NCBI GenBank assembly: GCA_965219085.1
Contig: OZ244720.1
Location: 1,056,001-1,120,000 of the forward strand
Source of the DNA: Dehalococcoidia bacterium
GTDB lineage: Bacteria > Chloroflexota > Dehalococcoidia > UBA2979
Reading direction: 5' to 3'
DNA length: 64,000 nucleotides
In this document: one piece after another, positions 24,998 through 29,486 of the stretch
How the letters are laid out: the number at the start of each line of letters is the position of its first letter
How positions within the stretch are numbered: position 1 is the first letter of the stretch
Notes under the pieces: model-generated
What the model saw: the letters and a program-made list of their open reading frames with translations, nothing else
Told to the model about the DNA's origin: nothing
Databases searched by the model: none
Position numbers and translations under genes: made by a program

Positions 24998-25243
24998 ATG
25001 AGAAAGCGTCTCGAAGTCCTCGTCGATGACGGTGAATACAGTGCGATCCGCGAGGCTTCTTGGAAGCAGCGGCTGACCGTGTCCGAATGGGTGCGTCGCG
25101 CTTTGCGACAGGCGCTGGCCGGCGAAGCTGATGCGGTCGAGACGAAGCTGGCCGCGATCGCCAACGCGTCGCGGCACGGTTTCCCGACGGCGGATATCGA
25201 GGTCATGCTCGACGAGATCGAGCGAGGGCGAGCCCTCCGCTAA
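24998..25243 (+). CDS. Orphan CopG/RHH antitoxin-like protein
   Basis: RLEVLVDD...TVSEWVRRAL; no adjacent toxin, the IS follows directly. Confidence 0.7.
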   Translation: MRKRLEVLVDDGEYSAIREASWKQRLTVSEWVRRALRQALAGEADAVETKLAAIANASRHGFPTADIEVMLDEIERGRALR

Positions 25244-25472
25244 GCTAAGCCCGCATCCACCGATCGAAGCTTGACGGGGCGGGATGCCGGGCTACCCGAG
25301 AGTTCGGCGGGCGTGCCGGCGTTCGCCGGGCAGTGCCGGGGGCGGGCCGGAGCGAGGAGCCGTCGCTCAGCGCCGCTCGGGGGCGCTGAGGGCGCGGGCG
25401 CGAGGGTGCGCGAGGCGTGCGCGGGCATGCTGGCGCGAGGCTCGGACCCGGGGCCGGCGCTGTGAGCGGGCG

Positions 25473-25858
25473 TCAGGCCGGGAGCGGTATCGCCCGTAGT
25501 CGCGCGAGCGCGGCTGCCAGCTGCCCGGCCCAGGGCCAGCGCTTCGGGAGGTGCAGGGTCCAGCGCCGGGCGGAGTGGGTGAGCCGTCCGGCGAGAGCGA
25601 AGTAGCGCCGCCTGAGCGTCCTGGTCGTGACGATTCCCTCGCCGAGCCCCAGCCGCGCCGTCCAGCGGGCGAGGTTGTGCGCGATCACCTGCACCGCGAG
25701 CCACGCCGCGTTCGCGGCGAAGCGGCCCGAGGGGAGATGATTGAGCCCGACGCCGTACTTGAGGTCACGGATCGCGTTCTCGATCTCGGCGTGACGGCGA
25801 TGGTCGGCCTCGAGCTCCATCATCTCCCCCGGCGCGGTCGGTGATGGAGGCGTGGTAG
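25473..25858 (-). pseudogene. IS1380 transposase, C-terminal fragment
   Basis: YHASITDR...EIENAIRDLKYGVGLNHLPSGRFAANAAWL...LPKRWPW; frameshift in C run near 25826. Confidence 0.88.
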
Positions 25859-25950
25859 ACCGTATGGAGTGACCGGCTCCGAGTTCGCAAACTCGCGGGT
25901 TACAGACGCGAGGCCACAGAGCCGCATACGAAAGGGAGCCGGTCAGGAAC

Positions 25951-26898
25951 ATGACTACCACATACGCAGGGATGGATGCACACGCCGCGACGATCCGGGT
26001 AGCGGTGCTGGCGCCGGGGGCCGAGCGGCCCGAGGAGTGGCAGCTGACGAACGAGCGGCGGTCGGTGAAGCGGCTCGCGCAACGCCTGAAGCGCATGGCG
26101 CCGGGGCCGGTCGTGGCCTGCTACGAGGCGGGGCCGGGGGGCTTCGCGCTACAGCGCCAGCTCGAGGCCGAAGGCATCGAATGCCGGGTGATCGCGCCGG
26201 CGCTGATCCCGATGCGGCCCGGCGACCGCGTCAAGACCGACCGCCGCGACGCCAGGAAGCCGGCGGAGCTGCTGCGCGCGGACCTGCTCACGGCGGTGCA
26301 TCCCCCGACCATCGACCAGGAGGCGGTGCGCGACCTCTGCCGGGCGCGCGAGGACGCCGTGACCGACCGCACGCGGGCGCGCCACCGCCTGGCGAAGCTG
26401 CTGCTGCGGCGCGGCATCGCCTACGACGGGCGGAACTGGACGCTGCGGCACCGCCGCTGGCTGCTGACGCTGCGCTTCGAACACCGGGCCGCGCAGGCCA
26501 CCTTCGACGACTACCTGCGCGCGCTCGAGGGCGTGGAGGAGCGGCTGCGCACGCTGGAGCAGGAACTGGCCGCGTGTGCCGCCAGCGACGACTACCGCGA
26601 GGCGGTGGGGCTGCTGCGCTGCTTCCGCGGGGTCGACACGGTGACGGCGATGACGGTGGGGGCAGCGCTGCGCAAGCGCCGCGAGGGCCAGCCGGGCTGG
26701 GCCGTGGTGCTGGCCGACCGCGCGCAGGCCCGGCTCTATCGCCGCCACCGGCGGCTGGCCGCTCACGGCAAGCCGTCGGTCGTGGCGAACACTGCCGTCG
26801 CCCGTGAACTCGCGGGCTACCTGTGGGCGGTGCTGCGGCGTATCCCCGCATCCGCGGGCGGGCCGAAGGTCGGCGCCCGGGAGCAGGCGGCGGCCTGA
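25951..26898 (+). pseudogene. IS110-family transposase with in-frame internal deletion
   Basis: DEDD RuvC-like domain (GMDAH, CYEAG, KTDRRDA) intact; jumps from FRGVDTVTAMTV to GAALRKR, lacking the catalytic-Ser segment. Confidence 0.85.
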
Positions 26899-27115
26899 TA
26901 CCACGCGCCCGGTCCGTGGCGAGGGCGGAGACGGCGGTACGCCGTTCCGGAGCAGGAGAGGATGGATGAGCGAGGGCAGGCTCAGGAGGATGCGCGGTAC
27001 AGCTATGCGGCAGCGGCGCCCAGCGCCGTCAACCCGCGACGCTAGACGGCGACCCCTCCCGGCGAAGCACGGTCATGCGGCAAGGCCCGAGGCAACCCGA
27101 CGTTCCTATAGAGAG

Positions 27116-28375
27116 TCAAGGGAGCGATCCGGCAGCCTCCTGCGCGGCGTGAGCGGCGAGGCGATTCGGGACAGAGGGATGCCCCGCTTCCAACCCCGCC
27201 CGCGCTGATCCGGGATCCGTGGATGCCCGTGTTGGCTGCCGTGGGTGCTCGCCGTCCACAGACGCGGGGGGCCCGCCCTCACAGGCGCGGGGGGCGCCGG
27301 GAGTCGAGCCGGGCGACAGCTGCGTGGCGTATCGCGCCAGATCGGCAGTGAGCGTTCGATAGAGCTGGCGAGCGACATAGCGCTTCAGGCAGCGGATGAT
27401 CTCGCGTTTGGACTTACCCTCCGCAGTGCGCTTCGCCACGTAAGCTCTGGTGCGGGCGCAATAGCGCAGGCGGACGAGCACGATCCGGTACAGCGCGCTG
27501 TTGGCCTGCCGGTCGCCGCCCGGGTTCAGGCGATGTCGCTGCGTGCGCCCGGAGGACGCCTCGAGGGGCGCGGCGCCGCAGAGCCGTGCGAAGGCGGCCT
27601 CGCTCGACAGCCGTCCGATGTTCTCGCCGGGGGTGACGAGTAACTGCGCGGCGTTCACGATGCCGACACCGGGCAGTGCGAGGGAGCCGGGTGCGACCCT
27701 CTCCACAAGTGACCGCAGCGCCTGGTCGAGATCGGCGACCTCGCGGTCCAGCTCGGCGACGTGGTGAGCGACGCTGCGCAGCGCGAGCTTCGCGGCCTGT
27801 AGTGGTTGGTCGAGCCGGGCCCTGTCCGGACGGAATCGCGCGCACTGCCGCGCCTTCGCGGGCAGGGTCTGCTGCGGCAGCGCCTCGCGGAGTTCCGCCG
27901 GCGCCGTGGCGATCAGGTCGCGCAGCTGCAGCAGCGCCGCACTGCGGGCCTTGACCGCGGCTGAACGAGCATTTGCGAGGGTGCGGATCGACTCGACGAC
28001 ACCGTTCGTGGCCTTGGGCAGCACCTGCGCCGTACCCGCCAGCACCTGCCTCGCGGCGGCCTCGGCGTCGATCGGGTCTGACTTACCCTGGCGCCGGCGC
28101 GTGTGCCGGTGCGGCTGGCTGACCTCGCGCACATCCAGCCCCTGTGCGAGCAACCAGCGTGTGAGCCCGGCCCCGTAGGACGAGGCGCCCTCCACGGCGA
28201 TCGTCGCGATCGTGCCGAACGCCTCCAGCCACTGGTGCAACTCCCGGTAGCCCCGCGCGGTCGCTGGGAACTCGGCATCCCCGAGTCTCTCTCCTCGATC
28301 GTCGAGTGCGACTGCGTGGTGCGTGCGGGAGTGGGTATCCACCCCTCCGATGACACCGCTCCGCGTTTCCGGCAT
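27116..28375 (-). CDS. IS110-family transposase (bridge recombinase)
   Basis: GVDTH, VEG, KSDPIDA (DEDD); PLEASSG catalytic Ser; RLNPGGDRQAN; KREIIRCLKR. Confidence 0.95.
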   Translation of the reverse strand: MPETRSGVIGGVDTHSRTHHAVALDDRGERLGDAEFPATARGYRELHQWLEAFGTIATIAVEGASSYGAGLTRWLLAQGLDVREVSQPHRHTRRRQGKSDPIDAEAAARQVLAGTAQVLPKATNGVVESIRTLANARSAAVKARSAALLQLRDLIATAPAELREALPQQTLPAKARQCARFRPDRARLDQPLQAAKLALRSVAHHVAELDREVADLDQALRSLVERVAPGSLALPGVGIVNAAQLLVTPGENIGRLSSEAAFARLCGAAPLEASSGRTQRHRLNPGGDRQANSALYRIVLVRLRYCARTRAYVAKRTAEGKSKREIIRCLKRYVARQLYRTLTADLARYATQLSPGSTPGAPRACEGGPPASVDGEHPRQPTRASTDPGSARAGLEAGHPSVPNRLAAHAAQEAAGSLP

Positions 28376-28605
28376 GCTCGCCGTACCTTCCTGCGGGGAG
28401 GTGTGTGACCGGGTCGTGGTGGGCGGACAGAACAGCGATGAGGCAACTCTGAGCCAGGTTCCTATGAGGTCACGCCACCCGCGGCCCGGTCACTTGGTGG
28501 ATGCGAGGAGGGCGGAGCCGACACGTCGGATTGAGGACACCGCTCGCGGTGGGTCAGCGAATATCTAGGTCAGGCTCCGTCCTTCTCGCTGTGAGTATCT
28601 TCGCT
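28376..28605 (-). ncRNA. Bridge RNA of the inner IS110
   Basis: Target guides at 28557-28565 and 28523-28533; donor guides at 28458-28465 and 28430-28438; order LTG-RTG-LDG-RDG on the minus strand. Confidence 0.85.
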
Positions 28606-28726
28606 GCGAATATCAGAGTGACACGTCGTCGAAGCAGCGCCCTCGTTCGTCCATCTCCCCCCGTTCCGGAGCCGGATCGCCACGACCACCGCCGGTGCTG
28701 CTTGACAGCCGGTCACTCCATATCAG

Positions 28727-29486
28727 CTGTACGTCGCGAAGAGCGCGAGCTGTGAGCCGGGCGTCGGCTTCACGCGCCGCACGATGAGCCGCACCGCGCT
28801 GGCGTCCGCCATGTGCTGGAACGGCGTGTACGTCGTCTCGGCGACAGCGGCGCCGCCCGGCAGCCAGTACGGGATCGGCGTCCAGTCCGCTTCCGGTATC
28901 GCCTCGATCAGCGTGCGTACGTTCGGCTGCTGGCGAATCGTGACCGAGAAGCGGACGTCCTGCTTGCGGCAGGCGGCGACGACCCCGTGGTTGTAGAAGC
29001 CGCTGTCGGCTCGCATCGTGAGCTGCCCGCTCGCCCCGGCGTCGCGGACCCGCGCCACCGTCTCACGCAGGAAGTGGGCGGCGCCGCGCCGGGTCCCGCT
29101 CCGGCCGCCCATGCGCGGGCGAGCAATGCGCGGCTGAGGCGGTCGAGCTGGCGGACGTGGCCCCAGCGGAAGCTGCGCAGGAAGGTCCCGAGGGTGGACG
29201 GCGCCTTCACGGTGCAGCCGAGCACGCGCCCGGCGCCGCCGGCGCGCATCGCATCGGCGTCGTCGATGCAGTCGCCGCCGGCGAGCGCCGAGGCGACCAG
29301 GGTCAGCAGCTTGTCGCCGGCGTTCGCCCGCCCCGGCGCGTCACCGAGGTCGAGATAGCGCTCGGCAAGATCGGGGAGACCGAGACGACCGGCGAGCGTG
29401 GCGGGGAGCAGCAGGCCCGCGTGGTCCACGAGGCGGTCGTCGTCGAAGGCGATGTCTATCCGGTCGGGGTCGCTCGTTGGTAGCAT
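28727..29486 (-). pseudogene. IS1380 transposase, N-terminal fragment with internal deletion/frameshift near 29095
   Basis: FDDDRLVDHAGL, GGDCIDD, APSTLGTFLRSF; then RADSGFY...RLIVRR in another frame. Confidence 0.88.

Follow-up and report, generated by a model that had tools for sequence, protein, structure and literature searches.

An IS110-group insertion sequence probably guided by its own bridge RNA to the bridge-RNA gene of an IS1111-type element

Introduction

On contig OZ244720.1 of a Dehalococcoidia bacterium (GenBank assembly GCA_965219085.1), an insertion sequence (IS) of the IS110 group lies inside the 3' non-coding region of an IS1111-type element, and the arrangement raises the question of whether one RNA-guided element has been directed by its own guide RNA into the guide-RNA gene of another. 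The two are referred to here as the inner and the outer element, and coordinates without a prefix are those of the window, the whole stretch of 64,000 nt that was analysed. The description of bridge and seek RNAs dates from 2024, and their natural targets include repeats and other mobile elements. An earlier note on this DNA had proposed that the inner element is programmed against the RNA of the outer one.

The comparisons described below lend good support to an insertion that is RNA-guided, oriented and site-specific, with the donor-binding loop of IS1111-type bridge-RNA genes as its target. The segment 27099-28605 is very probably an autonomous IS110-group insertion sequence with a two-loop bridge RNA in its 5' leader that guides it to an IS1111-type RNA gene. 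Its boundaries, site specificity, guide matches and their register, the nature of its target and the conserved structure of its RNA are established by sequence evidence.

Extent, ends and transposase of the inner element

The ends of the inner element were located from empty sites. The family's 99 genomes were searched for GCAACCC followed by GAATATCAGAG with 0-8 bases in between, which gave 26 uninterrupted outer sites; 25 of them read GCAACCC-GC-GAATATCAGAG, the commonest empty host site thus being GCAACCCGCGAATATCAGAG, i.e. CAACCC|GCGAATATC; the remaining site has an AC spacer. The form CAACCCGACGCGAATATC, with an extra GAC/GTC, was present at none of the 26, and a five-base spacer was never found in the 99 genomes. 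When contigs of four public runs from four studies were mapped on 26950-28750, position 27098 was joined to 28606 in all four, omitting exactly 1507 nt with 1 nt ambiguous. The filled site is spanned by one contig of 1566 nt (27070-28635) from a further study. The empty sites and the contig joint together place the insert at 27099-28605 (minus strand), a length of 1507 bp that is shared by six full copies, and three bases, GTC, therefore move with the inner element. The boundaries given in the earlier note, 27102-28607, were off by 3 nt, and CCGACGCGAATATC, which its target contained, is carried by none of the 26 uninterrupted outer elements.

Empty and filled sites were also found in like host subfamilies within one genome, namely L065 (empty) with L036 and L041 (filled), and L052, L056, L059 and L062 (empty) with L029 (filled). 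Two perfect empty targets are left in genome G000.

In its own sense the inner element starts AGCGAAG and finishes ...ATAGGAAC-GTC. The left junction is GATATTCGC|AGCGAAG and the right junction ATAGGAACGTC|GGGTTG, and the empty site is GATATTCGC|GGGTTG. For a conservative exchange the donor must then be ...ATAGGAACGT-C-AGCGAAG, with C alone common to donor and target. As GTC belongs to the inner element, a target core GC meets a donor core TC, instead of the GC and AC proposed before, and the accompanying circle junction TATAGGA-AC-AGCGA is contradicted by the corrected ends, which leave GTC in the donor. Across the copies, insertion is at one site and in one orientation, and there is no target duplication beyond the core, of which 1 nt is shared. 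The corrected circle junction is predicted to join TTGACT to GAAGAT with an 18-nt spacing, the geometry seen in a relative used as a calibrator (TTGACA-18-GATGAT; see below). The former junction would give TTGACT...GATACT, also with 18 nt between them, and the corrected one has the weaker -10, leaving the -35/-10 pair undecisive between the two.

The gene at 27116-28375 (minus strand; 419 aa) does encode an IS110-family transposase, as had been stated. PF01548 (77.4 bits; RuvC-like DEDD domain, residues 11-155) and PF02371 (56.7 bits; Tnp domain, residues 234-313) both exceed the Pfam cut-offs, and the NCBIfam model NF033542, 'IS110 family RNA-guided transposase', scores 158.2 bits (cut-off 140). 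The only related solved structures are the transposases of ISCro4 (E = 1e-4) and IS621 (E = 5e-4), both weak PDB matches. Within the gene, summed contig depth is very high at 27377-27437 in each of the four runs, in contigs that continue into unlike sequence; this peak is a motif common to the IS110 genes of other organisms and not a feature of the inner element.

The putative bridge RNA and its guides

The leader of the inner element is predicted to fold into two stem-loops with internal loops (z = -2.48). The same two-loop architecture was found in an alignment of 16 sequences, the inner element and 15 relatives, in which 20 of 37 consensus pairs show compensatory change. From the fold, the alignment and contigs of RNA runs, the bridge RNA is placed at 28396-28581 on the minus strand, with the target-binding loop predicted at ~28513-28579 and the donor-binding loop at ~28405-28493. 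A search of 25800-28800 against Rfam at a permissive threshold gave no match. Two metatranscriptomic contigs, 187 and 181 nt long and assembled in two runs of two studies, cover within the inner element only 28396-28581 and 28400-28579, respectively. In these runs the inner coding sequence is uncovered save for short stretches leading into unlike sequence, though no cover is not absence, and both also include contigs in which the outer 3' region is uninterrupted. The contigs are a weak hint of a discrete inner bridge RNA.

Both loops start with UGACCU and end with GUC and a stem. The target loop reads UGACCUA-GAUAUUCGC ... CAAUCC-GA-CGU-GUC and the donor loop UGACCUC-AUAGGAAC ... UCGCU-GU-UC-UGUC, and all segments that follow are on the minus strand. 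The left target guide (LTG), GAUAUUCGC (28557-28565), equals target positions 1-9, made up of the left arm GATATTC and the core GC, and as DNA (GATATTCGC; 28565-28557) it matches the left flank at 9/9. The right target guide (RTG), CAAUCC (28528-28533), pairs with GGGTTG; next to it, GA (28526-28527) pairs with the donor core TC and a handshake CGU (28523-28525) with donor ACG. The pairing of the whole 11-mer (28533-28523) with the right junction, described in the earlier note, stands at 11/11 when one G:U is allowed, but its extent as a target guide does not, being limited to CAAUCC. The left donor guide (LDG), AUAGGAAC (28458-28465), equals the right arm of the inner element, matches it as DNA (ATAGGAAC; 28465-28458) at 8/8, and stops 3 nt before the cut, an offset also seen in relatives. 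For both left guides the matches are those first reported.

The right donor guide (RDG), UCGCU (TCGCT, 28438-28434; 28432-28438 with the adjoining GU), pairs with AGCGA, the first five bases of the element, and covaries with the left end across relatives. The GU that follows it pairs with the target core GC with one wobble. The longer match of 9/9 claimed for this guide rested on the wrong junction. A 4-nt extension of the RDG, GUUC:GAAC, was rejected because GTC intervenes in the real donor and the extension is absent in relatives.

The four guide-like segments are where the earlier note had placed them, and as a control for their matches the 230-nt leader was dinucleotide-shuffled 20000 times. 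Equally good matches arose in 6 shuffles for the LTG, 309 for the RTG (with any wobble), 30 for the LDG and 2285 for a 6-nt RDG, and in none for all four guides together.

Guide register and core in related elements

A protein-seeded contig scan gave 598 stretches and 199 relatives, and the best 80 of these 199 loci were used together with the inner element and one further relative, L083 being excluded because it duplicates the inner element. In this way 61 elements were parsed, 57 of them with a readable right end. In all 57 (from the best 80 of 199), the donor end is NTC after the 8-mer matched by the LDG, and N is matched by a complementary base beside the invariant GA (44 A:U, 7 G:C and 6 T:A), a relation that holds in all 43 distinct guide sets. 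The constant NTC and the covarying guide base confirm the corrected register, in which the core complement is equidistant from the stem in the target and donor loops.

Among 43 left junctions, 38 combine a target core AC with GU in the donor loop, one combines GC with GC, and two, including that of the inner element itself, combine GC with GU; the usual core pairing among the relatives is target AC with donor TC. The unlike core dinucleotides of the inner element (GC and TC) hence depart from IS621 and not from the family overall. Comparison across the clade indicates that the first core base is not common to donor and target, and that the right guides would pair with the core of the partner and not with their own. 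For the RTG, pairing with the element's own right flank averages 4.16 of 6 positions, as against 2.27 for mismatched pairs; of 42 elements, 22 have an LTG that agrees with the left flank at 7/7, and 7 more have one that agrees at 6/7.

The calibrator, a ~50%-identical relative in genomes G002 and G003, has boundaries fixed by four empty sites and the same guide layout. Several copies of it (L031, 1-1206; sisters L023, L048, L037, L046 and L038, in G003/G002) are found ~50 nt downstream of an IS6-family (DDE_Tnp_IS240) transposase gene, which suggests that the calibrator too targets the end of another IS.

The target within the outer RNA gene

The outer RNA lies downstream of the outer transposase gene, in a 3' non-coding region where two paralogous loops occur, each consisting of a right guide, AUGCGGCA, a hairpin, CAACCCGCGA and a left guide; its RTG is 5' of its LTG, the order found in the IS1111 group. 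The target-binding loop (26985-27055, plus strand), placed by the consensus structure, carries the RTG TACAGCT (26998-27004) and the LTG CGCTAG (27040-27045). The RTG (7-8 nt) covaries with the right flank in four variants, TACAGCT/CTGTA, CTCACCCT/GGTGAG, TACACCT/GTGTA and GCCTGCT/CAGGC, and the left guide follows the last bases of the left flank. The donor-binding loop is split. Its 5' half (27060-27098, plus strand) holds the RDG ACGGTC (27069-27074), a stem strand TGCGG (27076-27080) and the apical hairpin, and its 3' half (28606-28630, plus strand) the remaining stem strand followed by the LDG ATATCAG (28610-28616), which recurs at the right end of the outer element, CCATATC-AG (28720-28726). 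Here ACGGUC forms pairs with the left end, AUAUCAG repeats the right end plus core, and both are constant among the retargeted variants. Judged from the covariation, the four right-guide variants (window 26998-27004 and loci L051-L074) are instances of natural retargeting, and the outer RNA is functional.

The target of the inner element, 15 nt read antisense, comprises the 3' strand of the donor-binding loop's inner stem together with the first five bases of the left donor guide. The copies, empty sites and contigs place its right half, CAACCC (GGGTTG in the sense of the element), at 27093-27098 (plus strand); its left half with the core, GCGAATATC (28606-28614, plus strand), shares bases with the outer stem strand and with the initial 5 nt of the outer LDG. 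The cut falls between CAACCC and GCGA, within the 3' strand of the second-loop stem, and the inner LTG runs through GCGA into AUAUC. The overlap of the target with a donor guide of the outer RNA, which had been proposed from the window alone, is thereby borne out, ATATCAG (28610-28616) being the outer left donor guide. The first loop of the outer RNA also has CAACCCGCGA without the bases that follow, and was never an insertion site among the copies found.

Insertion leaves the two halves of the outer donor-binding loop 1.5 kb apart and, as follows from the predicted structure, would inactivate the outer RNA in cis. The chosen site is the part of the outer RNA that is tied to the outer element's own end and is invariant while the target guides vary, and this invariance favours a special relationship between the inner and the outer element.

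The donor-loop stem that holds the cut (UGCGG/CCGCG) shows a compensatory pair in L049 (columns 230/252). L049 is also the one empty site with an AC spacer (G004:C1:1482601-1482620), and the opposite stem strand is changed there from GCGG to GTGG. With its stem preserved and the target core of the inner element altered, L049 could be an escape variant.

Copies of the inner element

Six full copies of the inner element were found in two genomes, all inserted at the same point of a 3' bridge-RNA gene belonging to an IS1111-type element, and a third genome, G004, which belongs to another genus, has two truncated copies and one fragment at the same outer position. The 230-nt leader occurs eight times in the three genomes (twice in G000, four times in G076 and twice in G004) and the 3' end six times. 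All eight leader copies adjoin ...GCGA(A/G)TATCAGAG of an outer element, all six right ends adjoin GGCAACCC, and the fragment, L040, retains the same junction. The flanks of these homologues therefore agree with the earlier proposal that the target loop is programmed for a site in the bridge-RNA gene of a related IS1111-type element, as the leader copies lie consistently in such 3' RNA genes (8/8, three genomes).

The four copies in G076 are 100% identical across 1507 nt and sit in host elements that are 69-78% identical, with homology to the right of the insert down to 18 nt. Identical inserts in hosts so diverged, with so little homology on the right, argue strongly against spread by homologous recombination. 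Judged from the sequences, independent insertion took place at least three times in G076 and once or twice in each of G000 and G004. The G004 copies at L021 and L030 end at the equivalent of window position 27719, where they are replaced by unrelated sequence, and their left flank is GATACTCGC, one change away from the guide.

Among the matches listed, close relatives of the inner transposase (93-97%) occur only in G076 and G004, and the next-best relatives are at most 56% identical and mostly from Actinomycetota. A 25-mer of the target loop had no exact match in the metagenome contigs. A scan of these contigs with a 20-mer gave two matches, which were rejected as unrelated AT-rich sequence with no similarity to the inner element.

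Proposed mechanism

In the mechanism proposed, the target-binding loop would read GATATTC-GC|GGGTTG through the LTG GAUAUUCGC and the RTG CAAUCC, and the donor-binding loop would read the joined ends ...ATAGGAACG-TC|AGCGA through the LDG AUAGGAAC and the RDG UCGCU. The top strands would be cut after the single shared base C, and the base that precedes it (T in the donor, G in the target) would be read crosswise, GA beside the RTG pairing with the incoming donor TC and GU beside the RDG with the incoming target GC. CGU would prolong this handshake onto donor ACG. The catalytic steps are those expected by analogy with IS621, and the insertion may bring the inner element a selective benefit.

In IS621, once strands have been exchanged, the bases beside the right guides form pairs with the DNA of the partner, and cognate pairing blocks the exchange (PMC11208158). 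The handshake of the inner element fits this principle, with the difference that its first core base would also be part of the handshake.

Alternative explanations

The model of the earlier note, with the target GATATTC-GC-GTCGGGTTG, the junction TATAGGA-AC-AGCGA and the cores GC and AC, would require that the empty sites are escape variants with a 3-bp deletion and that every site with GTC has been filled. On paper its four guides fit without gaps, with an RTG of 11 nt and an RDG of 9 nt. However, the 3 nt are present in none of the 26 empty sites, identical host subfamilies in one genome are empty without them and filled with them, and the contig joint omits exactly 1507 nt in all four runs. 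Under that model the two loops are also unequally spaced, the distance from core complement to stem being 3 nt shorter in the target loop, and in all 57 relatives NTC is part of the donor end, with the adjacent guide base covarying. Taken together, these observations make it extremely improbable.

A second explanation dispenses with RNA-guided targeting and supposes a single entry, followed by homologous recombination or gene conversion among outer copies or by composite transposition. It would account for the identical right flank of the window and of L002, for the outer guides of L002, whose mismatch to its flanks shows that rearrangement occurs, and for L036 and L041, whose hosts are 99.9% identical at different loci, as if a composite had moved with help in trans. 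It does not sit well with the hosts of L020, L029 and L036, which are 69-78% identical and offer ~18 nt of right homology around inserts that are 100% identical, nor with a 9-mer and an 11-mer of the leader that match precisely these junctions, nor with the covariation of guides and flanks in relatives. Recombination or composite transposition as the sole cause is accordingly considered very unlikely.

Guided insertion by the corrected guides is preferred, and several points weigh against it. The LDG stops 3 nt short, and the UC after GU pairs with neither partner, although it would pair with the shorter junction of the earlier note; the RTG has a G:U with all known targets. The checks of RTG and LTG against flanks are noisy, with pairing of only 0-3/6 in some elements. 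The sample is small and related, amounting to three genomes of one family and perhaps five to seven independent events, and within it the right flank is identical in both G000 copies, the L036 and L041 hosts are 99.9% identical, and L021 and L030 resemble one duplicated locus. The RNA data are contigs, from which strand, ends and abundance cannot be read, and among the contigs over the inner element, again contigs only, there was no circle junction and no back-joint. For the catalytic DEDD residues and the Tnp-domain serine, the motifs GVDTH, VEGAS, KSDPIDA and ASSGR of the inner transposase are candidates spotted by eye in the unaligned translation, and the PDB alignment is partial.

If insertion is guided as preferred here, it may still involve no antagonism, the outer RNA gene serving as a multi-copy, conserved and dispensable safe harbour, much as REP sequences and other IS do for other IS110 members, with damage to the outer element as a side effect that has no selective role. 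This is judged to have about an even chance of being correct. Repeats and other mobile elements are common targets of the IS110 family, and ISEc21 inserts in IS3-family transposase genes (PMC11187229). The outer element itself targets an IS1380-family transposase gene, and the calibrator lies near an IS6-family transposase gene. Empty, seemingly intact outer copies stand beside filled ones (two in G000 and five in G076), and bridge RNAs can work in trans (PMC11208160). Nothing direct speaks against a safe harbour, since a site tied to the host's own end fits 'hard to escape' and merely conserved equally. The alternative is RNA-guided parasitism, in which the inner target loop evolved to read the left donor guide and stem of the outer RNA, which the outer element could not change without losing recognition of its own end. 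This is put forward tentatively, as a reading with a real but lesser claim to being right, and the suggestion of the earlier note that insertion serves to disable a competitor is just as tentative. If it were true, the outer family would retarget freely, as the four variants show, yet could not escape insertion, and every insertion would destroy the outer donor-binding loop in cis.

The outer element and its IS1380-family host gene

The interrupted outer element occupies 25859-28726 (plus strand) with the core AG, as defined by its inverted repeats, its two-loop 3' RNA and empty IS1380 sites. Its subterminal inverted repeats, ATGGAGTGACCGGCT and AGCCGGTCACTCCAT (25864-25878 and 28707-28721), lie 5 nt inside each end, and their length of 15 bp is within the 7-17 bp of the IS1111 group. 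The outer transposase (25951-26898, plus strand; 315 aa) matches PF01548 only, the Tnp domain having been removed by an internal deletion, whereas that of L002 is intact, with 370 aa and both domains. An intact outer element is ~1521 bp and the one in the window 1361 bp without the insert, which gives an internal deletion of ~160 bp.

The outer element splits an IS1380-family transposase gene on the minus strand, of which the C-terminal part is at 25240-25858 and the N-terminal and middle part at 28727-29486. Fifteen copies of the empty IS1380 site, GAAGGCGTGGTAGCTGTAGCT, were found in three related genomes, and the outer core AG was deduced from them. The programmed target of the outer element in the IS1380-family gene is GAAGGCGTGGT-AG|CTGTAGCT (loci L161-L172), and of the 24 outer copies whose left flank could be read, 13 are inserted at this target. 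With the outer element in the IS1380 gene and the inner element in the outer one, the window holds a three-level chain of targeted IS-in-IS insertion.

At L002 (G000:C1:3172864-3177369), the outer target guides AAGCACT and CATCAG match neither flank, and the right flank is identical to the IS1380 flank in the window. This locus was probably rearranged by recombination between composite copies.

Relation to known systems

The inner element resembles IS621 (PMC11208160; PMC11208158) in its DEDD RuvC-like and Tnp domains, in a 5' leader RNA with target- and donor-binding internal loops, in an LTG that has the sense of the top strand and includes the core, in an RTG complementary to the top strand, and in handshake bases that adjoin the right guides and pair with the partner DNA. 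The inner protein is only distantly similar (PDB 8wt6, E = 5e-4, Tnp domain only). IS621 has an identical CT core in both partners, whereas the inner element shares only the second base, C; its first core base is T in the donor and G in the target (A in relatives) and is read crosswise. It differs further in an LDG that finishes 3 nt before the cut, and in having as its natural target the bridge-RNA gene of another element.

With ISEc21 (PMC11187229), the inner element shares an RNA from the upstream non-coding region (NCR) that directs an IS110-type element into a conserved sequence of another IS, and a bottom-strand match 5' of the top-strand match. The target differs, being the non-coding guide-RNA gene of an IS110-family relative. 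A further likeness is to an IS1111-type element that specialises in a conserved functional sequence belonging to a different mobile element; the target there is a protein-binding terminal repeat and not an RNA-guide gene. ISPpu10 (bioRxiv 10.64898/2026.03.19.712850) has its target beside a GC-rich stem-loop, and the inner target is likewise in and next to the hairpin of the outer donor loop; the structural role of the hairpin was demonstrated for ISPpu10 and is putative at the inner target. No IS110-family element that targets a bridge- or seek-RNA gene was found in full-text searches of the literature, although the supplementary target tables of the 2024 papers may list such cases.

Significance

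If a bridge RNA is naturally directed at a relative's guide-RNA gene, this would be a first example of guide-level conflict between RNA-guided transposons, and it would hint at why donor guides are targets that stay stable in evolution. The comparison of 57 elements of the clade (from the best 80 of 199) indicates that a single core base in common is enough for the two partners. It also indicates that the first core position, like the base next to it, behaves as a handshake position, which bears on the design rules of programmable bridge recombinases.

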